The translations under genes were made by a program, and so were the position numbers. Below the pieces are notes generated by a model, which saw only the letters and a program-made list of their open reading frames with translations, did no database searches and had not been told where the DNA came from. DNA of 64,000 bases from an uncultured Elusimicrobia bacterium (GTDB lineage Bacteria > Elusimicrobiota > Elusimicrobia > 2-01-FULL-59-12): the NCBI GenBank assembly GCA_963702895.1, contig OY969767.1:1454315-1518314 (forward strand), given 5' to 3'. Within the stretch, counting starts at the first letter, position 1. Every line of letters starts with the position of its first letter. Positions 33,267 to 56,117 of this stretch are shown piece by piece.

Positions 33267-33919
33267 ACAACCGCCTTTAGGCCGTCATCCCGGCGGCTCG
33301 TAAGCCGGGATCCATCATGATAGACCCCGGGTCTCCAAACGTCAGGCGACCCGGCCCGCCGGACGTGTGGAGGGCCGGCTTTCGCCGGGGTGACGTCGTT
33401 AAGTAAGGCACGATTTGTCTGGAGATGGCAGAGCGCGATCGCCAACGCATCGGCCGCATCATCAGGCTTGGGCAGCTCCTTGAGACGGAATTGGCGCTGG
33501 ACCATCGACTGCATCTGAAGCTTCGAAGCCGATCCGAAACCGGTCATCGCCATCTTCACCGCGCGGGGGTTGTATTCCAGGACAGGAAGTCCAGCCTCCG
33601 CCGCCACAAGCACGATCACGCCGCGGGCCTGAGCGGTGGCCGCGATGCTCACAGCAAATTTCGCGAAAAAGAGTTCTTCGATGGCCAGCACCTCCGGCTT
33701 GTGGGTCTGGATGAGGCTCGCCAGTTCTTGTTTGATCTGAAGAAGACGTTCCGGCAGGGCGGTCGAGGAGGGCGTCACAATCGCGCCAAAATCGATGAGA
33801 GCGATCCCCTTCGGTGCTTTTTCAAGCACGCCCCAGCCGGTGGTGGCCAGTCCCGGGTCGACACCCAGCACTCGACAACTTGACGCGGGGAAACTGGGAC
33901 GTGGAGAACTGTCGATCAT
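33263..33919 (-). CDS. ruvC: Crossover junction endodeoxyribonuclease RuvC with repeat-derived N- and C-terminal extensions
   Basis: VLGVDPG..TGWG, IEELFF, QARG, TGFG.A.K.Q, DDAADALAIA; ATG 33919 preceded by GGAGA. Confidence 0.95.
   Translation of the reverse strand: MIDSSPRPSFPASSCRVLGVDPGLATTGWGVLEKAPKGIALIDFGAIVTPSSTALPERLLQIKQELASLIQTHKPEVLAIEELFFAKFAVSIAATAQARGVIVLVAAEAGLPVLEYNPRAVKMAMTGFGSASKLQMQSMVQRQFRLKELPKPDDAADALAIALCHLQTNRALLNDVTPAKAGPPHVRRAGSPDVWRPGVYHDGSRLTSRRDDGLKAVV
33284..33394. repeat. REP-like doublet with nested 48-bp hairpin dimer, translated as the RuvC C-terminal tail
   Basis: Reverse complement matches 29041-29104 except for an extra ccctccacacgtccggcgggccgggtcgcctgacgtttggagacccgg; 111 bp. 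Confidence 0.9.
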
Positions 33920-33954
33920 TTCTCCGTGTCCCCGCATCACCGCGTCACCGCGCC
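33882..33954. repeat. Inverted arrays of 8-bp tandem repeats at the yebC-ruvC junction
   Basis: gacgcggg gaaactgg gacgtgga gaa ... tccgtgtc cccgcatc accgcgtc accgcgcc. Confidence 0.8.
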
Positions 33955-33959
33955 GGTGG

Positions 33960-34715
33960 TCACTTCGAGGCTGCGCTTTCAATGACGTCCTTGGGGATAT
34001 CAAAATTTGCGTACACGTTCTTGACGTCGTCGTGATCTTCCAGATCGTTCATGAGAGACATCATCTGCTGCGCCGGGGACCCGGTAAGTTTGACATAGGT
34101 CTTCGGCAAAAGGGTCACCTCTGCCGAAAGCGTGGGGACCTTCGCTGCCGCAAACGCCTTTTTCACAGACTCAAAATCCGCGGGCTGCGTGATGACCTCA
34201 AAGATATCGGGGTCTTCCGACTGAATGTCCTCTGCCCCGGCGTCGAGCGCCAGCGTCATGAGCTGATCTTCGGTGGCATTGGATTTCTCCACGGTCAGGA
34301 TCCCTTTCGAGGAAAACATCCAGCCCACCGAGCCCGTCTCGCCCAGGTTGCCGCCGTGTTGAGAAAAAAGGCGGCGGATTTCGCCCGCGGTGCGGTTTTT
34401 ATTGTCCGTCGTCACCTCAATCATGAGCGCCACACCGCTCGGGCCATAGCCCTCATAAACAAGCTCTTCGTAGGTTGCCCCTGGCAATTCGCCTGTGCCC
34501 CGCTGGATGGCCTTCTTGATATTGTCGGCCGGCATGTTCGCCTCCCGAGCATCATCCATGGCCTTGCGAAGTCGGGGGTTCGACTCCGGGCTTCCCCCGC
34601 CGATTTTGGCAGCAATCACGATTTCGCGGATAATCTTCGTAAAAAGCTTGCCCCGCTTAGCGTCGGCCAAGCCCTTCTTATGCTTAATTCCTGCCCAACG
34701 TGAATGTCCTGACAC
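33960..34715 (-). CDS. yebC: YebC/PmpR family protein
   Basis: SGHSRWAGIKHKK, YEGYGP.G, DNKNRT; GTG start behind a GGAGGAGGA SD. Confidence 0.96.
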   Translation of the reverse strand: MSGHSRWAGIKHKKGLADAKRGKLFTKIIREIVIAAKIGGGSPESNPRLRKAMDDAREANMPADNIKKAIQRGTGELPGATYEELVYEGYGPSGVALMIEVTTDNKNRTAGEIRRLFSQHGGNLGETGSVGWMFSSKGILTVEKSNATEDQLMTLALDAGAEDIQSEDPDIFEVITQPADFESVKKAFAAAKVPTLSAEVTLLPKTYVKLTGSPAQQMMSLMNDLEDHDDVKNVYANFDIPKDVIESAASK

Positions 34716-34735
34716 GGGTCCTCCTCCAATGGGGG

Positions 34736-34754
34736 GCCCCGCTTTCGCGGGGAT
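34736..34754. repeat. Single REP-like hairpin in the yebC 5' leader
   Basis: ccccgc-tttc-gcggggat, same stem-loop as the REP arms at 55784 and 56095. Confidence 0.65.
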
Positions 34755-34787
34755 GGAGCTGTTTCCTGTAAGCTTTTTGCCGGTCAC

Positions 34788-34796
34788 ATTTTAACA
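34788..34796 (-). promoter_or_regulatory. Putative extended -10 promoter (TGTTAAAAT) at the head of the yebC-ruv-que-sec run
   Basis: TGn+TAAAAT about 73 bp upstream of yebC; identical 9-mer at 43181-43189. Confidence 0.5.
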
Positions 34797-34907
34797 GATT
34801 CGTGCCCTCTTCCTCGATGGATCTGGGCAACAGCTTGACTGTTCTGCGTCCGAACGTGACGGAATCAGGTGATGCGGCGTTCTTCCGCCGAAGGTTAGAG
34901 CAGCCCC

Positions 34908-36902
34908 TCAGGGCCTTGCGGATCCACGAGAGGCCTTGGCATTCTGAGACACCACCGCTAAGTTTTTCTTCGCCAAGTCAAAGCTGGGATCAAGGTGAAG
35001 CGCTTTTTGATAGGCCTGGATCGCTTGGTCCCACGCCTCAATTTGCGTGTAATAGTAACCCAGGTTATTCCACATGTCACGGTCGGCCGGAAAGACCCGG
35101 ACTCCCTGCAAATAGAGCGCTTCCACATCCCCCTTGTGCTGCTCAAAATGTCTGAAATAGAGGCCGGCAAGCGCGTTGTAGGCGGTCTGGGAGAGCGGGT
35201 TAATCGCGAGGCAGATTCTGTAATAGTGGATGGCCTCCTCATCACGGCCGGCCTGCATCAGCAGGGTGGCGCGGTTAAAGTAAATCTCATCGTAACCGGC
35301 ATTGGCATCCAGGGCCCGCTGGTACATGTGGAGCGCCTTTTCCTTGTCCCCCATGCGCGCGTAGACATTGGCCAATTCGTAATTATTGTTCACCTCCAGG
35401 GGATGCCAACGGTACGCTCGCTCAAGGGAGCGCGCTGCCCCGGGCAGGTCGATGCCGCCCTTGGAGAGTTTAAAGCCGTGAAAAAAATGGATTTCCCCCC
35501 TCCACAACGCGAACGAGCGTGCCATGAGACTCATGAGTCCCAGCACGGCCAGGAGCACGAGCGCTTTGCGCCACAGAGGCGCAAGATTCACACGATGGAC
35601 CTTGAGGTTTTCGGGGTCAAGCGCCATCACGGAGCCCACCCACCACCAGAAAAAAAAGGCGGGCACGGCAAAATGGACCGATACATTCAGGAGATTATCG
35701 ACCAGCATCCCGGCGACCCCGCCGAGCATGCCCCAGCACATCGGCTTCCATCCGCCTGAGAGGCGCCGCGCGATCGCAGCGCCCTGGCGAAAGAAAAGGA
35801 CCCACATCCAAAGGACCACGCCGAATCCGATCGAGCCGATCTGCGACCAGTATTCAAGAATCTCGTTATGGGCGTTATTGGCGTGCGTGCGCGCCGCTAA
35901 GTTTTTCAGAAAGAGGATAGGCCCCTGGTAAAAAGGATAGAAGAGCTCAAAGCACCCCCACCCTTTCCCCAACCAGGGGTGGTCCTGGACCATACCGAAG
36001 GCGGCGATCCAGATCAGGAACCTCTGATAGACAGAACCATAGGCCTCGTGTGTAGCTCGTTTGACCTCCATCAAACGAGCAATGACGACCGGCTTATAAC
36101 TGTCCGCGCTTTGCGGCCAGGCAAGGACAATCAGCCCCATCACCACAAGGAGCGCTTTGGACCCCCGGGCGGACTTGGGGTCCGTTCGGTGCACGGCCCA
36201 CGCGAGCACGAGCAACCCCACCAAGAGCCCCATCCAAGAGGAACGGGTCATGGTCGCCAGGATCGCGCCAAGACAAACCGGAATGGCAAGAAAGAGCAGG
36301 GCGCGCGGAAATCTTGTCACCTTAAAAAGATAATCCGCCACCATCACCGGCATCACCACAACCAGAAACGACGACATAAAGTTGGGGTTGCCAAAAGTCG
36401 AGACGGGCCTGTTGCCGTAAGGGTTGAGCTGCCTGGGCCAAATCAGTTCCACGCCAAAGAACTGCGCGATTCCATAAGCGGCCGCGAGGGTCGCGACGAC
36501 ATACGTGATCCAAAGCAGCGCCCGGACGAGCGAGGCCTCACGCGCGCGCAAAGCAGCCGCATAAACTAAAAAGGTGTTCACGAGGAGGAAAATCATGGAT
36601 TTGGACCCCTCGCTGTAGATCGATGAGAGAAAGGCGGGATGGGCCGCCATCGACAGGAGCCAACTGCTGAGCGACACCAGGCCCAGGCCCAGGAACGGCA
36701 CATCCAAGGGTGAGCTCACCCAGGCCAGTTCGTTATTGCGCAGGGACGCCACAAGCCAAACACACCAACAGGCGGGAACGAACACATTGAGCAGGGCGAT
36801 CTGGGTGTAATAGGGATTGCGCGTCAGGTCTGTGAAAAAAAGAAGAGGGCAGACCCCGAAGAGAAGGAAAAGGAGACTACGGACGGATCGGGGGGTTGCC
36901 AT
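34908..36902 (-). CDS. O-antigen ligase-like (Wzy_C) membrane protein with C-terminal TPRs
   Basis: STFGNPNF, TRSSW, R..IW...G.GWG.F, AHNEILE, TPR helices. Confidence 0.88.
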   Translation of the reverse strand: MATPRSVRSLLFLLFGVCPLLFFTDLTRNPYYTQIALLNVFVPACWCVWLVASLRNNELAWVSSPLDVPFLGLGLVSLSSWLLSMAAHPAFLSSIYSEGSKSMIFLLVNTFLVYAAALRAREASLVRALLWITYVVATLAAAYGIAQFFGVELIWPRQLNPYGNRPVSTFGNPNFMSSFLVVVMPVMVADYLFKVTRFPRALLFLAIPVCLGAILATMTRSSWMGLLVGLLVLAWAVHRTDPKSARGSKALLVVMGLIVLAWPQSADSYKPVVIARLMEVKRATHEAYGSVYQRFLIWIAAFGMVQDHPWLGKGWGCFELFYPFYQGPILFLKNLAARTHANNAHNEILEYWSQIGSIGFGVVLWMWVLFFRQGAAIARRLSGGWKPMCWGMLGGVAGMLVDNLLNVSVHFAVPAFFFWWWVGSVMALDPENLKVHRVNLAPLWRKALVLLAVLGLMSLMARSFALWRGEIHFFHGFKLSKGGIDLPGAARSLERAYRWHPLEVNNNYELANVYARMGDKEKALHMYQRALDANAGYDEIYFNRATLLMQAGRDEEAIHYYRICLAINPLSQTAYNALAGLYFRHFEQHKGDVEALYLQGVRVFPADRDMWNNLGYYYTQIEAWDQAIQAYQKALHLDPSFDLAKKNLAVVSQNAKASRGSARP

Positions 36903-39552
36903 GGAAGAGCCGCTGGACATCCGGATCCTGCGGGGCGAGCCGCTGAACTTTTTGCCAGGTGCGCCCGGCTTCGGCCTCTTGCCCCAGCCGTTGCTGGACT
37001 GCGGCGAGGTTTTTCAGGACGCGCACGTTGTCCGGCGCGACCCAAAGACTCAACCGATACGCCCGCGAGGCCCCAGCCCCATTGCCCCTGACGAAGCGGA
37101 CGTTGCCCAAGTTTTCGAACATCTCCGCGTTGAAATGCCGGTGCGAGCCGTCCCAGCGTTCACGCAACACATCATTCTCGCGTGCCCGGCATTTCCAAGC
37201 ATAGAGGGATTCGAGATAGAGCTGCTCGGCAGTCTCCTGACGCTGGGCGACTTCCGTTGCCCGGCCGCGCATCTGGGCGATCTCCGCGAGTTGAAGTTGG
37301 ACCCAGGCGGCCCGCGCGTAGTTCGGTTCGAACACGGGGTCAATGGCATGATATTTCGAAAAATACAGGAGCGACTGCTTCCAGGAGGCCTCGGCCTGCT
37401 GAAGCGCTGCCTCCGCCTCTGCCATACGGCCCTGTCCGCGGAGCGTGTCGAACTGTTGGCGCTCGCCCTGTCCTTTCTTTAAGTACACAAGTCCCGCCTG
37501 GTGATGGGTCTGCACATAATTGGGAGCGATGGACCAGACGCGGCCGTATTCGTGCATGGCACGCTCAACGTCGCCGGGGCCCCAGCGGTCGGTGTACACA
37601 TTGCCCATGAAGTAGTAAGCCATGATGTAATTGGGATTAAGGGCCACAACCTTCGCGTAATTCTCGAGGGCCTCCGGCCATTTGCCCTGTTTGGAGAAGT
37701 AGATGCCCCGATTGTGATAGACGTCTGCCATAAAGTATCCCCAGAAATGCTGAAGCGGCCAGAACATCACCAGGAGCAAGACGAGATGCCCATACACATG
37801 ACGCAGAGACAGTCCCACACGCACGAGCATCCACCAGAATCCCGCGACGGTTGTCAGCACCGCGACCCAAGCGATCAACCAGAGGAGCTGCTCGCCCATC
37901 GATCCAGCCATGGGCCGCTGCGCTTCGTTAAACTGTGTCAAGACCATCCAAGTCACATAGCCAAAACCGGCCAGACATAAGCCTCGACCGATCTGGAGAA
38001 GCCAAGGCGGATGCGCTGGATTCAACAGGTCTTCGGGAGGAATCGGGCCCTGCGCCTCAGAAACCGGCATCGGATCATGCACGACCATAGCGCCGATGAG
38101 TCCCGCGAGCAGCCACAAAAAGATGCCCGATGACACAAAACGCAAACTCACATCCACGGAATTGTGCATGAGCATGCCCCAAAAGGCGGCCAGGACCCCC
38201 AGCATGTAATAGGAACGCGGATCTTGGGAAATCTTTCTTTTTCCCGACACCGGGTCGCGAATGGTAAGGCCAGCGGTGAAGCGCCCGAGCGCTCGGACGC
38301 CGAGGACAGAGAAGGTGGCGATCATCCAAAGGAAAAGACCGAAGCCAACGATACCCTCGTCCTGCAGCACTTCCCAGTATTCGTTCTCCGCGTGATCGGT
38401 TTCGGTGTTGTGTTTGCCTTCGATATGGAAGATCTGAACACGCCGGACAGCGGGGTAGAGAATGCGGAAACTTCCGATCCCATTGCCCCAGATGGGATTC
38501 CACTGCGCCATTTCCCAGGTGGAGACCCAGGTGGCCACGCGGAACCGGACCGAGGTGATGCGGCGCCTCGAAGAAAGCCCAACGGCGACCACACCGAAGA
38601 GGAGAATCAAGACGGCAGACCACAAAAGCTGCTTGCGGACTTTCTCGGACTTGAACTGAGAGAAATAGAAGACGACGAGCATGAGGAAGGAAAGCACGGC
38701 AACGGTGTAGCCAATCCACGACCCTTTGGATTCCGCCACAACGACGCAGAAGGTGATGAGGAAGAATAACAATCCGAGAAAAGAGAACCGGATCAGCGCA
38801 AACAACGCGAACGCGCACAAGAGCAGGGTGAAGAAGACGGCATTCCAGCTGGACAGGTTTGCCAACGCCAGGAATTCTCGGTGGTGCCAAAGAAGAATCG
38901 ACACAGCGCCTGCCGACAAGATGAAGAATATGAGAGAAATGGGCTTTTCGGGGTTGCGTTTCAGCAAGAGGGCCAGCGTAATGGGCGTCAGGATGACCAG
39001 GAAGTTGCCAAAGAAGTTAGGGTTGCCGAAGGTGGAGAAGATTTTGCCACCAAAGGCTTGGCGCCACACAAATGGATCGAGACCGGGCTGTGGCAAGGGA
39101 AAGAAGAAGATGTCGAGATACTGAATGAGCCCGTAGAGGGTGGCGATGGAGACGGCGATGAGGAGATAGAGGATGAGGCGTCGCAAGCGCTCAACCGTTG
39201 AGAATTCCCGAAGCGCGATCAGCGCAAAATGCACGTAAAAAACCCGGCGCAGGGTTTCCTCGAGGCCGCCGCCGGGGTAGGCGCAATGCGTAAACGCGAG
39301 AAGCCCCGAGGCGAGGCACGCCAAAAAGGGGATGGCGACAAGCGCGTAGCGCTCCCACTGTCCTTTCCAGTCACTGAGGAGGCGCACGGACCAGAAGCCG
39401 ATGAGAACGACGCCGCCCATCTGCACGATCGTGATTTTGACCTGCGCGGAATCGTAGGTGTGCAGATAAAAGGCAATGGAAGTCAGCAGGTAGAGAAAGG
39501 GCAGCGCGTAGGACAAAGCCCGGCTGCTGAGGCGCGCCGTTAAGCGATCCAC
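36877..39552 (-). CDS. Large O-antigen ligase-like (Wzy_C) membrane protein with TPRs
   Basis: STFGNPNFF, SKGSW, WG.G.GSF, HAENEY, TPR repeats; GTG start inferred to avoid overlapping the divergent gene. Confidence 0.85.
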   Translation of the reverse strand: MDRLTARLSSRALSYALPFLYLLTSIAFYLHTYDSAQVKITIVQMGGVVLIGFWSVRLLSDWKGQWERYALVAIPFLACLASGLLAFTHCAYPGGGLEETLRRVFYVHFALIALREFSTVERLRRLILYLLIAVSIATLYGLIQYLDIFFFPLPQPGLDPFVWRQAFGGKIFSTFGNPNFFGNFLVILTPITLALLLKRNPEKPISLIFFILSAGAVSILLWHHREFLALANLSSWNAVFFTLLLCAFALFALIRFSFLGLLFFLITFCVVVAESKGSWIGYTVAVLSFLMLVVFYFSQFKSEKVRKQLLWSAVLILLFGVVAVGLSSRRRITSVRFRVATWVSTWEMAQWNPIWGNGIGSFRILYPAVRRVQIFHIEGKHNTETDHAENEYWEVLQDEGIVGFGLFLWMIATFSVLGVRALGRFTAGLTIRDPVSGKRKISQDPRSYYMLGVLAAFWGMLMHNSVDVSLRFVSSGIFLWLLAGLIGAMVVHDPMPVSEAQGPIPPEDLLNPAHPPWLLQIGRGLCLAGFGYVTWMVLTQFNEAQRPMAGSMGEQLLWLIAWVAVLTTVAGFWWMLVRVGLSLRHVYGHLVLLLVMFWPLQHFWGYFMADVYHNRGIYFSKQGKWPEALENYAKVVALNPNYIMAYYFMGNVYTDRWGPGDVERAMHEYGRVWSIAPNYVQTHHQAGLVYLKKGQGERQQFDTLRGQGRMAEAEAALQQAEASWKQSLLYFSKYHAIDPVFEPNYARAAWVQLQLAEIAQMRGRATEVAQRQETAEQLYLESLYAWKCRARENDVLRERWDGSHRHFNAEMFENLGNVRFVRGNGAGASRAYRLSLWVAPDNVRVLKNLAAVQQRLGQEAEAGRTWQKVQRLAPQDPDVQRLFHGNPPIRP

Positions 39553-39609
39553 GGTATCACCCAGGATGAAGAAATTGACTCTCGAGAGACCATTTGATCT
39601 GATTAGCGT

Positions 39610-40551: not shown

Positions 40552-40573
40552 GCAAGACGCCAATCTTTAAGAC

Positions 40574-40788
40574 GTTACCCCGGCGAAAGCCGGCCCTCCA
40601 CACATCCGGCGGGCCGTCCGCCCTGCCGTGTGGCGGACGCGGTCTATCATGTTACGACGTAAATGATGGATCCGACACACTACAGTCGGACGCCTGTTGT
40701 GTGGCGTCCCGGCTTTCGCCGGGATGACGGACTAAAAAGTGCACGATGCTCAGACGATAGGATAAACTCAAGTGAAGATTCCCGGTTA
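40574..40788. repeat. Composite REP-like element with two nested hairpin inserts and a shared right tail
   Basis: gttaccccggcgaaagccgg[47 bp]ggtctatcat...atgatgga[36 bp]tcccggctttcgccgggatgac, then a tail homologous to 56017-56080. Confidence 0.85.
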
Positions 40789-42480: not shown

Positions 42481-42560
42481 CTAGCCGGGAAACTGCCGTT
42501 GCCGTCAGCCGGCCCTCCACACATCCGGCGCCCGCCACACGTCTAGCGAGGCCTCGCCGG
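42481..42560. repeat. Truncated composite element (left end plus hairpin units)
   Basis: ctagccgggaaactgccgttgccgtca resembles 55863 ctaaccggaaaactgtagttgccgtca; followed by gccggccctccacacatccggcg. Confidence 0.7.
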
Positions 42561-42564
42561 ATCA

Positions 42565-44347: not shown

Positions 44348-44429
44348 AGCCGGGGAAGGGACTCCCCGCCACTGAGTCTCTGGCGTTCCCGCCAATGCCG
44401 TAGTGGCGGGGAACCCACGACCTTCTCTT
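44348..44429 (-). pseudogene. tRNA 3' fragment (Thr-like) with a 46-bp insert in the T-loop
   Basis: AGAGAAGGTC-GTGGGTTC[insert 44365-44410]GAGTCCCTT-CCCCGGCT. Confidence 0.75.
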
Positions 44430-44509: not shown

Positions 44510-44582
44510 AGCCGAGGATCGGACTTGAACCGACAACATCTCCCTTACGAAGGGAGTGCTCTACCAATTGAGCTACCTCGGC
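44510..44582 (-). tRNA. tRNA-Thr(CGT)
   Basis: GCCGAGG TA GCTC AATTGGTA GAGC A CTCCC TTCGTAA GGGAG ATGTT GTCGG TTCAAGT CCGAT CCTCGGC T; complete cloverleaf, CCA not encoded. Confidence 0.97.
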
Positions 44583-45331: not shown

Positions 45332-46603
45332 CACTGGTGTCCGGTAAAAGTTAGCCGAAGCTTAGCCATAGCTGAGGCTCCATAGTTCGAACTTTTGAAA
45401 GATTCTTTTCGGGCATACGCAATAGATCGATGAGACTGAGCCGGTCGAGAAGGGTATTCTGAACCAACCGGTGCAGCAAGAACAGCGAACGCTGGAATCG
45501 TGTCTGGAACTTGATGTAGGCCAGGAGCAGGAAATAGCACAAGGCCACCCAGATTTGGGTAAAGACGGCATTTTTGGAAGTGCCGAGGAACGTTTTGATT
45601 TTGAGATGCTGCTTGAGCCACTTGAAGAACAGCTCGATCTGCCAACGGGCCTTATAGATTTGGGCAATGGTGAAAGCGGCCAGTTTGAAGTTATTGGTCA
45701 TAAACTGGTAAGTGATGGCGGTGTCGGCATCGTAGTAGCCGATGAGTCGTAAAGGTTTCTTGTATTTCGTCTTGGTGCGTGGGCCTGTAAGCTCAATGGT
45801 GCGATCGTACAACAGGCCGTTTTTTAAGGGAATTTCTTGCTGTCCGGTGATGCGGCAGGTGAGGTTGTCTTTGGCACGGGTGACGAAGAAAGAGCCGAGA
45901 TCGTCGATCTGACGGTACCAGCCGTAATCCATGTAGCCGCGGTCGAAGACATAGATGCTGTCCGGTTCTAAGGGAAAAAGACGTTTGGCGGCATGGTCGA
46001 AGCACTTTCCATCGGTGATGACGGCAAAGGAAGGGATTTGGCCACGCAAGTCCAGTTGGCAATGCAGTTTGATCGCTCCTTTGGCCTGTTTAAAGGTGGC
46101 CCAAGGGAAAAGGTTCAGGCACAGTTCCATGTTCGTGGAATCGAAGCAGGTCACTTTGTGTTTAAAACGGAACTGATGCTTAGGCGCGATGGCTTGGCAC
46201 CGATCCAGCAGGTGATAGAAGAGCTTTTCCATGATGCGCCAGTCGCGCCCAGCGTTAGCGTCAGCCAGGGTAGAACGTTTCACTGGCGGCAGCCCCAAGT
46301 GATAGAGCTTGGGTTGTTGCGTGCCTAAAGCCGTCTGGATGTCACGCAGGCTTGTTTTACCGCTGGCCTGAGCATAGAGGAGTGTCGTGAGCTGGTTCCA
46401 AGTCGAGAATTTTTTAACGTAGGCGTCGCCGCCGAAGCCAGAAACGGCTTGGTCGAACTGATGTCGTGGTAAAAGGAGAAGCAGTTGGTTCATTATGGTG
46501 TTAGAATGCATGAGCGAAATCCTCCCTCGGACAGAATGGTTTGCTTGGTCGCAATCATTCTACCGAACCAGGGGGATTTCGCATTTTTAACCGGACACGA
46601 GTG
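45332..46603 (-). mobile_element. IS4-family insertion sequence, copy 1 (1272 bp)
   Basis: TIRs CACTGGTGTCCGGT / ACCGGACACGAGTG; 9-bp TSD GTGTCGACC (45323-45331, 46604-46612). Confidence 0.95.
45351..46511 (-). CDS. IS4-family DDE transposase (DUF4372 + DDE_Tnp_1)
   Basis: SLRDI, RSTLADAN, DST, KLH, DRGY, YKARWQIELFFK (YREK motif). Confidence 0.95.
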   Translation of the reverse strand: MHSNTIMNQLLLLLPRHQFDQAVSGFGGDAYVKKFSTWNQLTTLLYAQASGKTSLRDIQTALGTQQPKLYHLGLPPVKRSTLADANAGRDWRIMEKLFYHLLDRCQAIAPKHQFRFKHKVTCFDSTNMELCLNLFPWATFKQAKGAIKLHCQLDLRGQIPSFAVITDGKCFDHAAKRLFPLEPDSIYVFDRGYMDYGWYRQIDDLGSFFVTRAKDNLTCRITGQQEIPLKNGLLYDRTIELTGPRTKTKYKKPLRLIGYYDADTAITYQFMTNNFKLAAFTIAQIYKARWQIELFFKWLKQHLKIKTFLGTSKNAVFTQIWVALCYFLLLAYIKFQTRFQRSLFLLHRLVQNTLLDRLSLIDLLRMPEKNLSKVRTMEPQLWLSFG

Positions 46604-48472: not shown

Positions 48473-48489
48473 CTTACGCTCATAAAAAC

Positions 48490-48990: not shown

Positions 48991-49054
48991 ACCTTCATGA
49001 TGGAAAGACTTGTGCTCATGATCGTCGAAGGGCCCATTTTATCATATGGCCTTC

Positions 49055-49522: not shown

Positions 49523-49535
49523 TCGTTTTGCCTCC

Positions 49536-50387
49536 TTAGTTATAGAGATGTTTGAATGCCGAGATCCTACGCCGCGTGCGATGGCCGTTAAAGGAGTAAA
49601 CCTCGATCTGTGTGCCAAAACCTTCTTTGGCGATGTAGAGGACGATTTCCTTCCAGCCATCCCCGTCGATGTCCAGGCAGCTTAAAAACCGATAGAAGTC
49701 CCTTTGCGCGTAAAGGCGCTGGTGCTCATCGATCGAGCGGGAGGCGGGTTTAAAGGACGTTTGCTGCACGAGTGGATAGTTTTTCCATTTCCCCCCATCA
49801 GCCACTTGAAGAAGCGCCACCGCGTAGACCGCGGAGGGCTGGTCGTCCCGCAGCGCACTGGCGTCCGAATGAGCGCAAAGAAGCCTCGCCTGGGGCCCAG
49901 CCGGAGTCAAGAGAACACGATAAGCCTGCGTCAGATAGGGACGAGGAACGTTCAACTTGCGCTTCTTGAGGTAGGCCGACATCCGGTCGAGGAGTTCTGG
50001 ATCATCCAGAGGCAAAGCGTGCGCGCGGTCCGCGGCCAAAGGAGGTTGTCCGACCACGGCGAGCGCGTAGGGTTCCCCGGCATCCTCACGGTACCAGTGG
50101 CCGATACGGGCCGTCCATTCCACGGCCGTACCGAGAGGGTTCGGCCGATACGGTTCAAGGTTGCTGACCTGAGCGACTTTCCCGGCCATCGTGTAAAGGG
50201 TGAAGACGTCTTCGGGTCCAGGTTGCTCATAAAACTCCTGATACGAAGCCCAGCCTTGAGCGGGCTCATACTTGCCGATCCCCATGGACACCAGGTCCGA
50301 GGTGACAAAAGCAAGAAAATATCGGGTTTCGCCCCACACAGGACAGCAGGTCCAAAGCACACACAGGCCGCCAGCCAGAAACCCCAT
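49536..50387 (-). CDS. Hypothetical exported protein
   Basis: Signal-like N-terminus; C-terminal DIDGDGWKEIV FG-GAP-like motif. Confidence 0.65.
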   Translation of the reverse strand: MGFLAGGLCVLWTCCPVWGETRYFLAFVTSDLVSMGIGKYEPAQGWASYQEFYEQPGPEDVFTLYTMAGKVAQVSNLEPYRPNPLGTAVEWTARIGHWYREDAGEPYALAVVGQPPLAADRAHALPLDDPELLDRMSAYLKKRKLNVPRPYLTQAYRVLLTPAGPQARLLCAHSDASALRDDQPSAVYAVALLQVADGGKWKNYPLVQQTSFKPASRSIDEHQRLYAQRDFYRFLSCLDIDGDGWKEIVLYIAKEGFGTQIEVYSFNGHRTRRRISAFKHLYN

Positions 50388-50440
50388 CCCACACCGGCTG
50401 CCCGTTTTACTTCGCAGGGGACACCTCCCAGAGCTTCGTT

Positions 50441-51625: not shown

Positions 51626-51656
51626 TAGAACCCCCTCAGGCCATACGATGAGCAAC

Positions 51657-51817
51657 GTCATCCCCCGCGGACGTTAGCGGGGGAACCATCATTACTTTTT
51701 CGTTCGCTGATAGACCCCGGGTCTCCACAAGTCCAGCGACCCTCCGCCACATCCGACACACGTCAGTCGGATCCGCCCAATGCGTGGAGAGCCGGCTTCC
51801 AACCGCCAAGGGGTGAC
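51657..51817. repeat. REP-like doublet with multiply nested hairpin units
   Basis: gtcatcccccgc..gcgggggaaccatcat...tgatagaccccgg[gtctccac..gacc, ctccgccaca, tccgacacacgtcagtcgga..]gccgg..ggggtgac. Confidence 0.8.
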
Positions 51818-51843
51818 GTCTCTCTCAATTTTGCTGGCTCGTA

Positions 51844-52584
51844 TCATTTCGATGATGACTGGATATCCTTCTCTACCTGCCGATAGGCCTGCTCCGACTC
51901 ACGTGAGACTTTCTCGGACATGTCGCGGACCTCATTGGATAGTTGTTTCCGTTTATCTTTCACCTCTTTATCGATGGGTTTCAGGGATTTGGTCAAGCGA
52001 GTGACTTCCTTCTTCAGTGAATCCATTTCCTTCTTGGCGCTTTTGCTGTTCTGTTTCGAAAGCTCAGCGATCTTGGCGTTGGACGACGCGATGTTCTTTT
52101 CAATGTCCTGGCGCCGCTTCAGGGCGCCGCCGATCTCCTTTTCCCATCGCTCCGTGAACTGCTTGAGGGAAGCGATTTCCTTTTCATGGTAGGTGACCAG
52201 TGCCTGAAGCTGCGGGACAGCTGGCGCGGGTGCGGCGTCTGACACGGCAGGCGTCGCTTCGGATTCCTTCTTGGAAACCGCCGCAGGTGCAGGTGTCGCG
52301 GTCGAAACGCTGACTGCAGGCGCCGCCGCAGCCGCCTCGGCGCTCTTGGCCGGCTCGGCAGCCTTCACGTCGGGCGCTGTTTCTTTCGCCGGCTCTGCGG
52401 CCTTGGTGGGCTCGGCCGCTTTCTCTTCGGCTGCCGCGGGTTTCGCTGGCTCAGCAGCTTTCACATCCGTGACCGCCGCCTTCGCCTCGGTTCCCGTCGG
52501 CTCAGCTTCCTTCTTCTCCTGTGCCCCAACAGCGGACGAGAGGCTCCACACCAGCATCAGCACGAGATAGCGTTTCATGTTCAT
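51844..52584 (-). CDS. Secreted protein with KAAEP-rich low-complexity linker and coiled coil
   Basis: Signal peptide (VGA-QE), repeated KAAEP(A/T)K, heptad-rich C-terminus; GAGGAGG SD. Confidence 0.8.
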   Translation of the reverse strand: MNMKRYLVLMLVWSLSSAVGAQEKKEAEPTGTEAKAAVTDVKAAEPAKPAAAEEKAAEPTKAAEPAKETAPDVKAAEPAKSAEAAAAAPAVSVSTATPAPAAVSKKESEATPAVSDAAPAPAVPQLQALVTYHEKEIASLKQFTERWEKEIGGALKRRQDIEKNIASSNAKIAELSKQNSKSAKKEMDSLKKEVTRLTKSLKPIDKEVKDKRKQLSNEVRDMSEKVSRESEQAYRQVEKDIQSSSK

Positions 52585-52620
52585 CCTCCTCGATTTTACT
52601 TTGTCAATTTCAATGATCTT

Positions 52621-53397
52621 CTAGAACGAGATCACGACACCTGCAACAAATTGATTAAACAGAGTAAACGTATAAACCTCGTCGTTATCGGCGCCGCCTT
52701 CGAGCAGCCTGTAGCCGGCTTTAAGGGAAAAGGTCCGGTTGAGATCATACATTCCCGCAAATAAAACGTCCTCGGCTCGGCCTTGCGGGGCTGCGAGGGC
52801 CTCGCCGTCCATCAAGAGATGGAACTTCTCGAAAGGGGTCCATTGGACGAGGAAACTGAAGAGCGGGACGACACCCGTGTTCTTCTTCTCCGAGACCATG
52901 TTCCCGCTCTGGAGCTTGATCGCCGCATCACGCACCTTGAGCGCGCCACCCAACCCAAACTGCCAACTCCCCGGCGTGTCGAACAGGTAACGGTAGATCA
53001 ATCGATACGAATCAAACCGGAACGTCGCGTCCACCGAGGAACCTTGAGAAAAGGTCGATCCGTTGAAATCGACATCCTGGTCCAGCATCCCATGGGATTC
53101 CACGGTCAAGGGCGCGATCAAGACCCCCAGCCAATGACGCTTGGAGAAGGTGTGGCTGTAACGGATCCGGAACGCCGCCGCATTTTCAGACTCCAGGTCG
53201 TCCGTTAGCGAAAACTCGGTGCCTGTATCCCCCGGAATACGGACGTTGATGTAACCGGGCACGACATAAGCCCCTTCCAGGTCAAAAACGTTCTGAGCCA
53301 GCGCGACTGGCACAAGAACAGAACCGATGAGTCCAGCGGCAAAGGCGGTTCTGGCGATCTCCCGACAAAACCCATCTGGCAAGATCTTGATGCCCAC
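52621..53397 (-). CDS. Outer-membrane beta-barrel protein
   Basis: Signal peptide, alternating beta strands, terminal Phe. Confidence 0.75.
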   Translation of the reverse strand: MGIKILPDGFCREIARTAFAAGLIGSVLVPVALAQNVFDLEGAYVVPGYINVRIPGDTGTEFSLTDDLESENAAAFRIRYSHTFSKRHWLGVLIAPLTVESHGMLDQDVDFNGSTFSQGSSVDATFRFDSYRLIYRYLFDTPGSWQFGLGGALKVRDAAIKLQSGNMVSEKKNTGVVPLFSFLVQWTPFEKFHLLMDGEALAAPQGRAEDVLFAGMYDLNRTFSLKAGYRLLEGGADNDEVYTFTLFNQFVAGVVISF

Positions 53398-54158
53398 GTT
53401 TGAATAAACCGCCTACAGTTTTCGATAGGTTTCAGGAGCTTCAAACAAGGCACCGTCTGTCTTGACTGAGCCCGCTTCGAGAACCTCGTTGAGCATCATG
53501 ACGGTGGGGCCCGTCGCACCGAGGGTTTTCTCCATTTCGATGACCCAGAAGGGACGTTCTGAGCTGGCCAGAGGCTTGCGCTCATCGGATTCGGGAGGTG
53601 CTCCAAGCCCCGCCGCCAGAGAGGCGACAAATTCCGTGATCTCACCCGAGGCTCCGGGAGCCCCTTCCGCTTTCGGTTGCCAGCTCCAGGCGGCAAGCTG
53701 TCGCACGGTCACCCCTTGGATCTGGGCGCGCGCGCCGCGGTAGGCCGCTTGGATCTTCTTGAAGTCTTCTGGGTTGCCGTTCATCTCGAGGAGCTGTTTA
53801 TTGAGCGTCCTCAGCAGCCAGCCGAGCGTCAGCTGCTCGGACCGATGCTGGGTTAAGAGATCCTCGCTGAAGCGCTCCTCCGCTTTCCGAAACTGAACGA
53901 CCGAGGCGGCTTTCTCGGTCACCCACAGTTTTTCGAGCAGCGTCTCGGTCGCGACCACTTGCCCTGTGCCGGCGTTCGAGAAATCCACCTCCACGCGGAT
54001 CGTATAGGACTGGCATGGAAAACCGTTGACTTTCGCCGAGCCCAGCGGGCCTGTGACACGGGGTTCAATTCGTGAGACTTTGAGAGAAGCTGGATCCATG
54101 GAAGCGCCGGACACCGCCGGGCCGCCCTCATCGAAGGACGGTACATAGGGTGCCACAC

Positions 54159-55430
54159 CACTGGTGTCCGGTAAAAGTTAGCCGAAGCTTAGCCATAGCT
54201 GAGGCTCCATAGTTCGAACTTTTGAAAGATTCTTTTCGGGCATACGCAATAGATCGATGAGACTGAGCCGGTCGAGAAGGGTATTCTGAACCAACCGGTG
54301 CAGCAAGAACAGCGAACGCTGGAATCGTGTCTGGAACTTGATGTAGGCCAGGAGCAGGAAATAGCACAAGGCCACCCAGATTTGGGTAAAGACGGCATTT
54401 TTGGAAGTGCCGAGGAACGTTTTGATTTTGAGATGCTGCTTGAGCCACTTGAAGAACAGCTCGATCTGCCAACGGGCCTTATAGATTTGGGCAATGGTGA
54501 AAGCGGCCAGTTTGAAGTTATTGGTCATAAACTGGTAAGTGATGGCGGTGTCGGCATCGTAGTAGCCGATGAGTCGTAAAGGTTTCTTGTATTTCGTCTT
54601 GGTGCGTGGGCCTGTAAGCTCAATGGTGCGATCGTACAACAGGCCGTTTTTTAAGGGAATTTCTTGCTGTCCGGTGATGCGGCAGGTGAGGTTGTCTTTG
54701 GCACGGGTGACGAAGAAAGAGCCGAGATCGTCGATCTGACGGTACCAGCCGTAATCCATGTAGCCGCGGTCGAAGACATAGATGCTGTCCGGTTCTAAGG
54801 GAAAAAGACGTTTGGCGGCATGGTCGAAGCACTTTCCATCGGTGATGACGGCAAAGGAAGGGATTTGGCCACGCAAGTCCAGTTGGCAATGCAGTTTGAT
54901 CGCTCCTTTGGCCTGTTTAAAGGTGGCCCAAGGGAAAAGGTTCAGGCACAGTTCCATGTTCGTGGAATCGAAGCAGGTCACTTTGTGTTTAAAACGGAAC
55001 TGATGCTTAGGCGCGATGGCTTGGCACCGATCCAGCAGGTGATAGAAGAGCTTTTCCATGATGCGCCAGTCGCGCCCAGCGTTAGCGTCAGCCAGGGTAG
55101 AACGTTTCACTGGCGGCAGCCCCAAGTGATAGAGCTTGGGTTGTTGCGTGCCTAAAGCCGTCTGGATGTCACGCAGGCTTGTTTTACCGCTGGCCTGAGC
55201 ATAGAGGAGTGTCGTGAGCTGGTTCCAAGTCGAGAATTTTTTAACGTAGGCGTCGCCGCCGAAGCCAGAAACGGCTTGGTCGAACTGATGTCGTGGTAAA
55301 AGGAGAAGCAGTTGGTTCATTATGGTGTTAGAATGCATGAGCGAAATCCTCCCTCGGACAGAATGGTTTGCTTGGTCGCAATCATTCTACCGAACCAGGG
55401 GGATTTCGCATTTTTAACCGGACACGAGTG
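54159..55430 (-). mobile_element. IS4-family insertion sequence, copy 2 (1272 bp)
   Basis: Same TIRs as copy 1; 9-bp TSD GTGCCACAC (54150-54158, 55431-55439). Confidence 0.95.
54178..55338 (-). CDS. IS4-family DDE transposase
   Basis: Protein identical to 45351-46511. Confidence 0.95.
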   Translation of the reverse strand: MHSNTIMNQLLLLLPRHQFDQAVSGFGGDAYVKKFSTWNQLTTLLYAQASGKTSLRDIQTALGTQQPKLYHLGLPPVKRSTLADANAGRDWRIMEKLFYHLLDRCQAIAPKHQFRFKHKVTCFDSTNMELCLNLFPWATFKQAKGAIKLHCQLDLRGQIPSFAVITDGKCFDHAAKRLFPLEPDSIYVFDRGYMDYGWYRQIDDLGSFFVTRAKDNLTCRITGQQEIPLKNGLLYDRTIELTGPRTKTKYKKPLRLIGYYDADTAITYQFMTNNFKLAAFTIAQIYKARWQIELFFKWLKQHLKIKTFLGTSKNAVFTQIWVALCYFLLLAYIKFQTRFQRSLFLLHRLVQNTLLDRLSLIDLLRMPEKNLSKVRTMEPQLWLSFG

Positions 55431-55783
55431 GTGCCACACTGTAGGTTTTTGCTTGAGAATCCAAGTGGATCTGAACCCCTCTATCCAGCCGATCGATGAT
55501 GGTGGATGTGGCAGGGACCTCCCCGGAAGCCCATCCCTTGACTGTGGTTTTGAGATCGGTGCGCTTCGCCGGATGACTGATCACCACACGGCGCTCGGCA
55601 TCAATCGAAAAACCTGAACTATAGACCGCAACATGGACTTTCGCCTTTGTGGCCGCCTGGCTGAGTCCGGCGAAAAGAATGACAAAACATAACGCCTTAG
55701 CGGCGGTGCTCCGTATTAAGAATTTCATGACGAGTCTCCTTTGTGCGATTCAATACAAATCTGCCCGGCAGATGATCCGCTTC

Positions 55784-56117
55784 GTCATCCCCGCGGAAGC
55801 GGGCCCTCCACACAGCCGGCGGGCCCGTCCGCCGGATTTGTGGAGGACGGGGACCCATGAGACTAACCGGAAAACTGTAGTTGCCGTCACCCCGGCACGT
55901 CGTAAGCCGGCCCTCCAGACTACCGGCGGGCCGTCCGCCCTGCCGTGTGGCGGACGGGGTCTATCATCGACGTATAAAACATGATGGATCCCCCACTTAC
56001 GACCGTGGGGGATGACGGCACTAAAAAGTCCCGACGTCTCAATCGATAAACAACGCCCAACCGAACGTTTCCGGCTGATAGAAACGAGGACGAAATCCCC
56101 GCTTTCGCGAGCATGAC
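55784..56117. repeat. Nested repeat cluster: outer REP pair enclosing a MITE-like unit that contains an inner REP doublet; both left arms carry hairpin dimers
   Basis: Outer gtcatccccgcggaagcggg..(55784) / ..ccccgctttcgcgagcatgac (56117); ctaaccggaaaac..gtttccggctgatag (55863-56080); inner doublet 55886-56016. Confidence 0.85.

Follow-up and report, generated by a model that had tools for sequence, protein, structure and literature searches.

Hairpin dimers with a short duplicated core occupy fixed points of REP arms, tRNA T-loops and one another in an Elusimicrobia genome

The multiplication of REP-like and smaller repeats is an old open question, and we know of no enzyme for the CGTC-type REPs. 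These REPs are described as having a stem of 8-9 bp, a loop of 4-5 nt and a 3-nt tail near CCA (Di Nocera et al. 2013, PMC3733652). The accessible part of that source names five phyla for them, Elusimicrobiota not being among these, and the word 'nested' occurs 0 times in it. Here, we analyzed a REP with this tag in an uncultured Elusimicrobia bacterium. The window is a stretch of 64,000 nt, to which the positions below refer, and the genome-wide counts are those of one 2.72-Mb contig. The repeat is a CGTC-tagged REP doublet, many arms of which hold a hairpin pair of 47-48 nt at a constant position. Literature searches found no description of such double-hairpin elements.

In the host REP, the tag CGTC (or TGTC/CCTC) is unpaired at one end, in the form CGTCA(C/T)CCC, and the REP 12-mer CGTCACCCCGGC occurs 106 times. 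Arm B has the stem ATCCCGGC/GCCGGGAT and the tail CCA; arm A has the stem ACCCCGGC/GCCGGGGT and the tail CTA. The loop is GAAA/GGAA in many copies and 8-10 nt long in many others. The arms mostly form head-to-head doublets, and no copies flank the Y1 genes of relatives. As far as the accessible text of PMC3733652 goes, the described CGTC REPs share with the host REP the tag, head-to-head dimers and the lack of a dedicated transposase gene; an 8-bp stem opening with an A-T pair, a 4-nt GAAA/GGAA loop in many copies and a 3-nt tail (CCA in arm B) agree in part. The host REP differs from them in the 8-10-nt loops of many copies and in the CTA end of arm A.

The reference empty site is a doublet at 29041-29105 (..aagccgg^ggtctatcat..), with arm A at 29041-29070 (+) and arm B at about 29068-29105 (-). 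The initial annotation had placed an empty doublet at 29041-29104, which our analysis confirmed. Folded as single-stranded DNA, it forms two hairpins (-21.4 kcal/mol, z -4.9). Genome-wide, 206 REP arms are empty, 41 are filled at one point (site A) and 10 more at GGA^TCC (site B). The 10 arms filled at site B are of three stem types (6 arms from the haplotype analysis and 4 read from arm and dimer listings). A degenerate REP arm remnant lies at 56095-56117 (-). The REP arm is also occupied, at one exact point, by an IS110 family, a larger parasite.

Filled copies had been claimed at 33284, 40574, 55784 and 55886, and all four carry 47-48 extra nucleotides forming two hairpins. The doublet at 33284-33395 consists of an empty B-type arm (33284-33317, +) and an A arm (33318-33395, -), which starts at 33394 on the minus strand and is filled at site A by a type-1b dimer. 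This dimer adds 48 nt and spans, by ruler, 33327-33377 (-), including both copies of a 3-nt core. In the doublet at 40574-40729, both arms are filled. Its site-A insert is a type-1a dimer at 40591-40640 (+), adding 47 nt. In order, it comprises the core CGG, the unit CCCTCC-ACACATCC-GGCGGG, the centre CCG, the unit TCCGCC-CTGCCGTGT-GGCGGA and the second core copy, here CGC. The right arm carries a site-B dimer in GGA^TCC at 40671-40709 (-), adding 36 nt, with the units CGCC..GGCG and (TCC)GAC..GTC(GGA). The single REP arm at 55784-55860 (+), with the stem CCCCGC, is filled at site A by an insert at 55804-55851, the second unit of which is a 1a/1b hybrid. In the doublet at 55886-56017, the A arm is filled by a 1a dimer (47 nt added, 55911-55957) and the B arm is empty.

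The inserts are nested. At site A their length rises in steps of 47/48 nt (32 arms), 89-91 nt (8 arms) and 130 nt (1 arm), corresponding to up to three nested dimers, and removal of the inner dimer gives back the next-simpler form. Three levels had been proposed from the window, where the A arm (-) of the doublet at 51656-51818 does carry such a nest, partly deleted. Its innermost unit, ATCCGAC-ACACGTCA-GTCGGAT (51751-51772, +), lies inside the loop of a CTCCGCC unit (remnant 51742-51750), which is nested in a 1b-type dimer (51717-51741 and 51773-51791). This unit is the tccgac-acacNNca-gtcgga module that the initial annotation had located here and in the GGA^TCC at 40671-40709, as our analysis also found. 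An intact homologue is present at genome position C1:2533635, and an intact three-level nest with an insert of 130 nt at C1:81151-81309. At 42501-42560 (+) we found a truncated nest, which retains part of a REP arm, a first unit of type 1a and a dimer of the second level (CCCGCC../CCTCGCC..) that ends at 42560; this remnant matches the form of the 89-nt inserts. It and the degenerate T-loop insert at 44348-44422 are additions to the earlier list of window items.

Each dimer consists of two hairpin units, the first with the loop A[C/G]ACnnnn and the second with the loop nnnnGT[G/C]T. The end of the second loop, GT(G/C)T, is the start of the first, A(C/G)AC, seen on the opposite strand. The layout is T-[X loop X']-T'-[Y loop' Y']-T, with GC-rich stems X and Y, each 4-8 bp long. 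T stands for 1-3 nt of target sequence, of which an empty site has one copy and a filled site two; the T' in the centre is its reverse complement. The dimer measures 34-45 nt plus the duplicated core of 1-3 nt, which is only 0-1 nt in three nest types. The pairing exceeds chance: adjacent hairpin pairs are F-then-R in 52 cases, R-then-F in 3, FF in 4 and RR in 2. The dimer pattern has 39 matches in the genome and its reverse has 0; the junction 12-mer GCCGGCCCTCCA occurs 48 times. In 73 of the 76 dimers the stems of both units overlap through a shared centre, and in 55 of the 76 this overlap is 2-3 nt long. In other genomes a positive overlap was found in just 13 of 35 loci by a perfect-pair measure, a shortfall that comes largely from one-mismatch stems. 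The outer 2-3 nt of the stems are variable (TCCGCC, AGCGCC, CCCGCC, GGCGCC, CCCTCC..) while GCC-ACAC, further in, is conserved. Variation is far greater at the four free loop positions than in the stems, which are mostly perfect, and the second unit of most 1a copies has an invariant 9-nt loop. By reading of the dimer listing, the A(C/G)AC and GT(G/C)T variants agree within 2 dimers and disagree within 8. Since they do not covary, each hairpin is constrained separately. The long-hairpin form was rejected as the constrained form on the same grounds; the isolated dimer does fold in this way as single-stranded DNA.

The dimer family is site-specific, and the REP is one of four target types. It also occupies the T-loops of tRNA 3' fragments that directly follow 14 tRNA genes; further copies lie in a second palindromic repeat (at the centre of a heptamer palindrome) or within other dimers. 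Empty sites with a single T read CGG (arm A), GGA (arm B), CG or CA (T-loops) and CC (second repeat). The initial annotation had proposed insertion into hairpin or palindromic sites; this is supported, with the amendment that the sites are specific ones and not any hairpin. The centre tracks the target. TTCG loops have the centre CG and TTCA loops TG, with unchanged stems, and likewise in three other genomes. T is asymmetric at sites A and B, and 0 copies lie there in the opposite orientation; in CG T-loops, dimers occur in both orientations.

The suggested kinship of the REP inserts with the T-loop inserts was upheld by their common F-then-R order, loops and stems (TCCGCC/GGCGGA, AGCGCC/GGCGCT and C/TCCGAC). 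Within 600 nt of tRNA genes we found 25 of the 76 dimers, by manual count of unique dimers in the proximity listing, vs 1.7 expected. Automatic labelling of the context of the 76 dimers was crude (33/76 'other'), and those were reassigned by eye. In the window, the T-loop of the tRNA-like T-arm/acceptor fragment at 44348-44422 (-) holds a pair of degenerate hairpins; tRNA-Thr(CGT) (44510-44582, -) lies about 90 nt upstream of this fragment. The T-loop inserts accompany tandem duplication of the tRNA 3' half, and several of the fragments are followed by T runs. All dimer copies are intergenic or at gene ends. In a scan of the tmRNA and tRNA genes, no functional structured RNA proved to carry an insert: the gene for tmRNA is intact and 48/48 tRNA genes are normal. 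Among the Rfam models searched against the window, only tRNA-Thr reached the gathering score.

Dimers are restricted to a narrow lineage. They were found in 9 of the 151 genomes of the class, with at least 9 copies only in four genomes, all of one Elusimicrobiota family. Four genomes share the A(C/G)AC motif and a limited repertoire of stems. Across 185,579 species genomes, more than one locus was detected only in three records, all titled Elusimicrobia or Elusimicrobiota, which account for 18 of the 61 loci. One match only was obtained in viral contigs and was taken as chance. The REP arm is present in 41 of the 151 genomes of the class. Since empty REPs are far more widespread than dimers, the empty state is the older one.

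None of the enzymes examined tracks the dimers. Across the 11 genomes of the family this holds for Y1_Tnp, Resolvase, RVT_1 and IS110. Y1 transposase is present in 10 of the 11, with or without dimers, and the serine recombinase (Resolvase) also in 10 of the 11; IS110 and reverse transcriptase (RVT_1) were not found in two dimer-bearing genomes. The only Y1 match in the genome itself is a truncated ORF of 84 aa, with no intact Y1 transposase, and the flanks of the Y1 genes in relatives contain none of these repeats. In the genome we detected no TnpB, and none of its four tyrosine recombinases adjoins the tRNA arrays. The ends of its five multicopy IS families (Mutator, two DDE_Tnp_1 types and two IS110) are not dimer-like. 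No F...R pair encloses an ORF as a full-length autonomous element would. One candidate parent, C1:1610603-1611470, is in fact an ordinary gene with a separate filled REP doublet on either side.

From their sequence and distribution, we consider the dimers likely to be an ultra-small non-autonomous mobile element that recombines at a short core. The initial annotation had proposed modules inserting into other repeats and into themselves. One family was indeed found, but the mobile unit would be the dimer and not a single module of about 23 nt. We infer mobility from the distribution, no single locus having been found both empty and filled; the circle or dumbbell, the single-strandedness and the enzyme are also inferred. 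The element, joined via its two T copies, would form a circle, which would fold to a dumbbell with a stem of Y'TX paired with X'T'Y and two 8-nt caps. Recombination would be with a target that has an identical short core, probably in the single-stranded state and at sites able to form hairpins, and the element would be moved in trans by a putative enzyme. Its preferred targets lie at two points of the CGTC-type REP arm, at the C56-R57 step of tRNA T-loops, at the centre of the heptamer palindrome and in other dimers, the last giving rise to nests. Insertion into the T-loop would be tolerated only in redundant tRNA 3' fragments.

The distribution over host haplotypes argues for recurrent events. 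The type-1a inserts occupy 15 arms of 13 host haplotypes, 6 of which also occur empty, and the type-1b inserts 17 arms of 10 haplotypes, 7 of which also occur empty. An identical 47-mer is found in 6 arms of 5 host haplotypes at six unlinked loci, including hosts with compensatory stem differences, and a single haplotype occurs empty six times, with 1a twice and with 1b twice. Insert and host are incongruent: for type 1a the mean pairwise distance is 0.185 between hosts vs 0.044 between inserts, the host being more distant in 101 of 105 pairs, and the filled copies do not form one clade. Neither of the two conditions that the initial annotation had named as refuting (one clade of filled copies, no real similarity to the tRNA-fragment inserts) holds. 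Near-identical inserts thus occur in many host haplotypes that also exist empty; therefore, the host lineages were occupied by repeated insertion, not by one event. It is unlikely that each site type was invaded once, long ago, and that REP and dimer then multiplied together as a composite. On this reading, haplotypes that occur both empty and filled would come from REP gene conversion, or from palindrome deletion by replication slippage between short direct repeats, an established process. A composite repeat of about 190 nt (10 copies captured, 4 filled) is compatible with such spread: its filled copies have almost identical inserts, and its poorly resolved tree (4 changes vs a shuffled mean of 3.4) does not reject one origin (AU p 0.233). 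Co-inheritance could also account for a dimer of the CCCTCC type that a related genus carries in its own, diverged REP arms at the homologous point. However, the near-identical 1a inserts extend over hosts with 4-nt vs 9-nt loops and compensatory stems, and conversion would have just about 20 nt of homology per side. Moreover, joint spread with the REP does not explain why dimers also occupy T-loops at 14 tRNA loci, the second repeat and other dimers, and empty REPs are much more widespread than dimers. At orthologous sites in two alignable genomes of the same genus (about 70% identical), the whole REP is absent, with no intermediate states. Among public reads, a single run contained this DNA, with 12% of the words sampled; neither its contigs nor those of two sister runs reach any REP site or show joints there.

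Formation in place without transposition seems improbable. Here, replication errors at hairpin-forming sites, by template switching or snap-back synthesis, would copy T into T' and duplicate T. This would fit with a T' that follows every change of target and is without exception the complement of the local one, and with mostly perfect stems beside much more variable loop positions; the T-loop inserts with tandem tRNA 3'-half duplication also suggest replication slippage. However, the identical 47-mers at six unlinked loci and the invariant 9-nt 1a loop demand copying from a template, and the same motif and few stems recur in four genomes. We regard it as very improbable that the hairpins are selected structural modules, such as terminators or RNA-stability hairpins, alike by convergence. 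Their intergenic or gene-end positions, the T runs after several tRNA fragments and the very stable folding of composites (-52.2 kcal/mol, z -7.45, for the doublet at 40576-40725 as single-stranded DNA) agree with such a role. Convergence cannot yield identical 47-mers, a nucleotide-exact insertion point, a duplicated core and stepwise nesting, and tRNA is the only Rfam family matching the window. The dimers do not match a MITE of a DDE transposon: the outermost stem nucleotides are variable and not conserved at the tips as MITE termini are, the duplication is 1-3 nt and not of fixed length, and no parent IS has the same ends.

As a mobile element, the dimer looks like one of the smallest seen in bacteria, and a moving unit of this length would lie close to the minimum size of mobile DNA. 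More tentatively, and with some doubt, the dimers might represent a new, minimal class of mobile DNA: a self-complementary dumbbell of about 40 nt made solely of two protein-recognition hairpins and a 1-3-nt core that is re-specified per target. It might move as single-stranded DNA via an enzyme outside the usual transposases (possibly host replication or repair) and home to T-loops, REP stems and its own kind, with T-loop insertion coupled to tRNA 3'-half duplication that leaves arrays of decoy fragments. Dozens of empty and filled sites, up to three nested generations, readable cores and the four target types constitute a clean natural experiment; therefore, the mechanism is testable with oligonucleotides and candidate proteins. 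REPs, usually viewed as parasites or domesticated elements, would then be hosts themselves to smaller (dimers) and larger (IS110 family) parasites. T-loop targeting and the tRNA-fragment arrays bear on the survival of tRNA genes under site-specific invaders. In practice, nests break short-read assemblies and can confound the annotation of tRNA pseudogenes and terminators.

Among known systems, the small dispersed repeats (SDR) of Nostoc, 21-27 nt long and grouped into families SDR1-8, were reportedly judged mobile by Elhai and colleagues in 2008 and are said to lie inside other repeats and hairpin contexts, with no enzyme known. They belong to another phylum and differ from the dimers in sequence, and they are not known to form double hairpins, to target T-loops or to have a core matched by a central complement. 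Double-hairpin elements and GC clusters are also known from mitochondria, including those of Allomyces and yeast. According to the accessible part of PMC2800124, mitochondrial double-hairpin elements, GC clusters and repetitive hairpin-forming elements are, like the dimers, short GC-rich single or double hairpins presumed to be mobile; they occupy intergenic positions, places next to tRNA genes and rRNA genes themselves, and have no known enzyme. They differ in being organellar and unrelated in sequence, and that part of the source does not describe nucleotide-exact targets or a core-complementary centre. As described in the accessible part of Bertels & Rainey (2011, PMC3116915), REPIN/RAYT and the dimers share a unit of two inverted hairpins, high copy number and intergenic location. 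The dimers lack a GTAG-type tag, and it is their loop that bears the conserved motif; they also differ in being about half the REPIN size and in having a duplicated core of 1-3 nt. Of the REPIN/RAYT features, the unit of two inverted hairpins is present (F-then-R 52 vs 3); a cognate Y1 gene with the repeats at its flanks is not.

In the single-stranded DNA transposition of IS200/IS605, hairpin ends are recognised by structure, and a short guide within the element selects the target by base pairing. Insertion occurs 3' of the target, both end hairpins lie on one strand, and the target is not duplicated. In this style, the single central T' of the dimer could guide both cleavage sites, and what looks like duplication of T may be a right end carried by the element. 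A purely element-borne core is hard to reconcile with the way the core varies from target to target on constant stems. Unlike in IS200/IS605, the loop motifs of the dimers are on opposite strands (reverse complements), and the Y1 gene of the genome is truncated. In the lack of an intact Y1 and in end hairpins that are not on the same strand, the dimers do not match a minimal element derived from IS200/IS605. In serine recombinases (including the IS607 type) and IS110 bridge recombinases, a circle and its target recombine at an identical 2-nt core that then flanks the insert; an asymmetric core fixes the orientation and a palindromic core allows both. The dimers differ in that the core is 1-3 nt and neither serine recombinase nor IS110 tracks them, and the ends of the IS110 copies in the genome are unrelated to theirs. 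In orientation, the dimers resemble these core-sharing recombinases: it is fixed at an asymmetric T, and both orientations occur in the CG T-loops.

The host genome is one contig (G000:C1) of 2,724,539 bp with 57% G+C. In a genome-wide 12-mer count, its commonest 12-mers came from one repeat, and CGTCACCCCGGC occurred 106 times. From outside to inside, an arm of this REP reads CGTC-A(C/T)CCCGGC-loop-GCCGGG(G/A)T-C(T/C)A-TCAT, and two arms are paired face to face as a doublet, for example at 29041-29105 (coordinates without a prefix are those of the window). The CGTC-tagged REP superfamily possesses a CGTC tag, an 8-bp stem opening with A-T, a 4-nt loop, a 3-nt tail and head-to-head dimers, and has no dedicated transposase (PMC3733652); the arm anatomy found here largely corresponds to this, with loops of 8-10 nt in many copies and a CTA tail in arm A. 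Under a strict pattern, the genome has 206 empty arms whose 7-bp stem is perfectly paired.

The exact REP-arm pattern was strand-skewed, with 80 forward and 54 reverse matches in the whole genome. REP doublets also form the core of composite repeats of about 190 nt that have conserved flanks of their own. At least two such families exist, one with the ends GCTGCCGAAAAA...TTTTTCGGCAGC, and each contains empty members (for example, G000:C1 positions 222548, 671279 and 1082778) and filled members (237599, 424506 and 872655). In the window, the ruvC frame (33263-34003, minus strand) reads through the filled doublet at 33284-33395 and stops at 33263, overlapping the start of ruvA. The RuvC domain occupies residues 45-193 of the 246 in this frame, and the 3′ end of ruvC looks either lengthened or substituted by the REP.

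The initial annotation described 47-48 extra nucleotides in several arms as two hairpins, and its strings and coordinates were all correct on checking. The hairpins lie at GCCGG^GG of arm A (site A) in the copies at 33318-33395 (minus strand), 40574, 55784 and 55886. In the first hairpin (F unit), the loop opens with A(C/G)AC and continues with four free bases. In the second (R unit), four or five free bases precede GT(G/C)T, the F loop motif on the opposite strand. In a structural scan for both loop types, adjacent pairs were F-then-R in 52 cases, R-then-F in 3, F-F in 4 and R-R in 2; the F-R pair is called the dimer here. The dimer pattern matched 39 times in the host genome, against 0 for the same pattern read backwards. 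A looser scan listed 76 dimers and is incomplete, containing, for example, only 24 of the site-A copies.

Genome-wide, 41 filled site-A arms were detected by pattern, and the insert length increased stepwise: 47/48 nt (n = 32), 89-91 nt (n = 8) and 130 nt (n = 1). The 89-91-nt inserts are 47/48-nt dimers enclosing a second dimer of 42 nt at either of two places. In the 130-nt insert (G000:C1:81151-81309), a third dimer of 40 nt lies within the second. The window case at 51656-51818, for which three nesting levels had been proposed, has this same architecture with an internal deletion. Site B is GGA^TCC of arm B, where a 36-nt dimer is present in 10 arms (6 found by pattern and 4 with a CCGGGA stem read from listings, including the window copy at 40671-40709). 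A second kind of double hairpin, GTCCCCC..GGGGGAC with GTCCCTTCC..GGAAGGGAC, also occurs in REP arms (G000:C1 positions 710891, 712732, 663437, 974490, 1610603-1610690 and 1611360-1611470). Some arms carry mixed pairs of a GTCCCCC-type hairpin and a single ACAC-family hairpin, the loop of which is the palindrome AGACGTCT.

Comparison with empty sites showed that insertion adds X-loop-X′-T′-Y-loop′-Y′-T after the target T, where T is a core of 1-3 nt and T′ its complement at the centre of the dimer. Thus GC-CGG-GGTC of arm A becomes GC-CGG-[..]-CCG-[..]-CGG-GGTC. T and centre are GGA and TCC for arm B, CG and CG for TTCG T-loops, CA and TG for TTCA T-loops, and CC and GG for a palindrome of heptamers. 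One stem pair was found with both centres, CG in TTCG loops and TG in TTCA loops. In the looser scan, the stems share the centre in 73 of the 76 dimers (3 nt, n = 34; 2 nt, n = 21), and in three nest types the shared centre is only 0-1 nt. The centre is also complementary to the flank in T-loop inserts of three more genomes of the family (L124, L126, L127 and L142 in G007, L118 in G005 and L138 in G001). A related genus has REP arms with a CCCGCG stem that hold, at the homologous point, a dimer of the CCCTCC type; as read from the sequences, its core is GCG and its centre CGC. When stem overlap in other genomes was measured by perfect pairs only, 13 of 35 loci were positive, 4 were zero and 18 were negative, many of these negatives being stems with one internal mismatch.

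At sites A and B, where T is asymmetric, no dimer of opposite orientation was found by pattern search of the genome. In CG T-loops, dimers occur in both orientations. Behind tRNA-Gly(CCC), two adjoining units carry the same dimer kind in opposite senses, and the AGCGCC unit takes the distal place after tRNA-Gln and tRNA-Glu and the proximal one after tRNA-Thr(GGT). Dimer orientation thus follows the core. Within a dimer, the AGAC and GTCT variants read from the adjacent-hairpin scan are not linked (2 agree and 8 disagree). Therefore, mutual pairing of the two loops is not under selection, and the constraint acts on each hairpin separately. By fold computation, an isolated dimer as single-stranded DNA would form one long hairpin.

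The 76 dimers of the looser scan were sorted by context; the automatic labels were crude, and 33 dimers were re-sorted by eye. REP site A accounts for 24 dimers and site B for 6, T-loops of tRNA 3′ fragments for 23, the inside of other dimers for 10, the site GGACC^TCGG in a second palindromic repeat of CGTCCGA heptamers for 8, tRNA-Ala 5′ fragments for 2 and other places for 3. In the second repeat, runs of the CGTCCGA heptamer stand opposite runs of TCGGACG; it forms 139 clusters in G000:C1 (for example, at 480103, 1640272 and 1680500), and at least eight copies carry the dimer at GGACC^TCGG. A TCCGCC/GGCGGA stem is common to the second unit of type 1a, one of the two dimer kinds at site A, and to units inserted into T-loops of the Phe, Thr and Pro fragments. 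An AGCGCC/GGCGCT stem is present in T-loops and in the second-level nest. The stem CCCGAC is found in T-loops, TCCGAC at site B and ATCCGAC in the innermost nest. Since stems are shared between contexts, the likeness of the REP inserts to the tRNA T-loop inserts, noticed in the initial annotation, is real.

The T-loop dimers sit directly 3′ of intact tRNA genes. In these arrays, the tRNA gene and a short trailer are followed by one to six tandem copies of the gene's own 3′ part, each starting near the variable region, ending a few bases beyond the tRNA end and interrupted by a dimer between T-loop positions 57 and 58. Examples are the arrays of tRNA-Gln (six 82-nt units, G000:C1:2455079-2455471), tRNA-Phe (G000:C1:1598602-1599035), tRNA-Gly-CCC (G000:C1:1909501-1909647) and tRNA-Pro-TGG (G000:C1:1652353-1652730); inside the window, a tRNA 3′ fragment with a T-loop insert lies at 44348-44422. 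By our own count, 25 of the 76 dimers are within 600 nt of a tRNA gene, against 1.7 expected for this zone (2.25% of the genome), and 14 tRNA genes have a dimer just downstream. T-loop insertion goes together with duplication of the tRNA 3′ half. Adjacent units may carry different dimers or opposite orientations, and thus the arrays are not simple amplifications. The tRNA-Glu 3′ fragment after tRNA-Glu(TTC) (G000:C1:1666813-1666880) ends with ..GGGGGCACCA, and the gene itself continues as ..GGGGGCACgc. The fragment seems to carry a CCA absent from the gene, a single case that may be due to chance. A tRNA-like 3′ fragment at G000:C1:2516570-2516860 contains several hairpins of the ACAC type and adjoins a tyrosine-recombinase gene (2516958-2518013, minus strand); it is probably the attachment site of an island.

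A filled arm could descend from a single insertion that spread with its host, or dimers could have entered different hosts repeatedly. The 15 simple inserts of type 1a are found in 13 host haplotypes (tag, stem, loop, stem and tail combined), 6 of which were also found empty. The mean pairwise distance was 0.185 for the host part and 0.044 for the insert, and the host was more distant in 101 of 105 pairs. For type 1b, the other site-A kind, 17 inserts are found in 10 haplotypes, 7 also empty, with distances of 0.152 (host) and 0.094 (insert). An identical 47-mer is shared by six arms of five haplotypes, whose loops are 4 or 9 nt and whose stems have compensatory differences (CCCCGGC, CCCCGGT, CCCCGGA and TCCCGGC). 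A single haplotype occurs in three states, namely empty (six copies), with 1a (two) and with 1b (two), and the site-B dimers are in host arms of three different stems. Incongruence between insert and host, which the initial annotation had named as the sign of repeated insertion, was thus found by haplotypes and pairwise distances. The inserts postdate host diversification and have entered many host lineages. In a composite family of about 190 nt with a doublet core, the host tree was unresolved, and the test did not reject that all filled copies share one origin (AU p 0.233). Therefore, some spread of dimers together with the host also happens. From the initial reading, one family, repeated insertion, self-nesting and T-loop kinship are supported, and mobility itself is what we infer from the distribution.

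Of 151 genomes sampled across the class, 41 contain the exact host REP arm, and these belong to many families. The dimer pattern was detected in 9 of the 151, and at least nine copies were present only in the host genome (39), G005 (38), G001 (18) and G007 (9), which all belong to one family; controls with the reversed pattern gave 0-1 matches. No dimer pattern was found in two genomes of the same genus (73% and 89% complete) or in one 98%-complete family member (G004), and G009 of this family is likewise free of dimers. With a stricter pattern and one genome per species (185,579 species), 61 loci were obtained. Three records titled Elusimicrobia/Elusimicrobiota contributed 18 of them, and the other 43 were single matches in unrelated, mostly high-G+C genomes. 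In this wide scan as well, dimers occupied REP arms and the T-loops that follow tRNA genes; one genome had them in the REP loop, not the stem. Since the host is widespread and the dimers are in one family, the host REP is old, and the dimer parasite is younger and limited to one lineage.

These features agree best with an element that, if joined via its two T copies, would be a small circle, foldable into a dumbbell in which the stem Y′-T-X pairs with X′-T′-Y and the two 8-nt loops form the caps. This circle would recombine with a target bearing the identical short core. In core-sharing recombinases (serine recombinases including IS607-type transposases, and IS110), an asymmetric core fixes the orientation and a palindromic core permits both. 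The likeness lies in the logic of same-core recombination. Single-strand transposition of the IS200/IS605 type relies on base pairing between the target and a short guide carried by the element. The likeness here is the short guide pairing, and the central T′ of the dimer could serve both ends. The core varies with the target while the stems are constant, which leaves room for a target-templated centre. Behaviour as a DDE-type MITE is unlikely, since variation is greatest at the tips of the element and conservation is found further in, at GCC-ACAC.

As for the enzyme, the comparison covered selected protein families. A Y1 transposase is present in 10 of 11 family genomes regardless of dimers and does not track them, and the Y1 genes of relatives are not flanked by these repeats. 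The sole Y1 (IS200-like) transposase of the host genome is a truncated 84-aa ORF (G000:C1:390674-390928; L001 1456-1710) that keeps the region of the HxH-like motif. A serine recombinase, also in 10 of 11 family genomes, does not track the dimers either. Neither IS110 nor reverse transcriptase turned up in two genomes that carry dimers, no TnpB was found in the host genome, none of its tyrosine recombinases is near the tRNA arrays, and a search for longer elements bounded by F and R gave none. An IS with a 386-aa transposase (DUF4372 and DDE_Tnp_1) has seven copies in the genome, two of them in the window at 45351-46511 and 54178-55338 (minus strand), 8827 bp apart. A reverse-transcriptase ORF of 507 aa, which may represent a group II intron, occurs three times (G000:C1:230277-230963, 463860-464546 and 1962540-1963226), each about 3 kb or less from REP or nested-dimer sites.

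Literature searches gave no description of these dimer elements. The duplicated core, the complement of which stands centrally in the dimer, the nucleotide-exact sites in REP stems and the T-loop targeting coupled to tRNA-fragment arrays are features that we did not meet in descriptions. REPs are known targets of IS elements (PMC1525189). Here, an IS110-family element encoding a 350-aa protein with DEDD_Tnp_IS110 and Transposase_20 domains has all five of its copies (G000:C1:90476-91528, 152479-153531, 445382-446434, 504687-505739 and 1715409-1716461) precisely at CGTCACCCC^GGC in REP arm A, whether the arm is empty or dimer-filled. The dimers themselves would belong to a kind already known, very small hairpin repeats behaving as mobile DNA. 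The nearest precedents are the small dispersed repeats of Nostoc and the mitochondrial hairpin and double-hairpin elements (PMC2800124).
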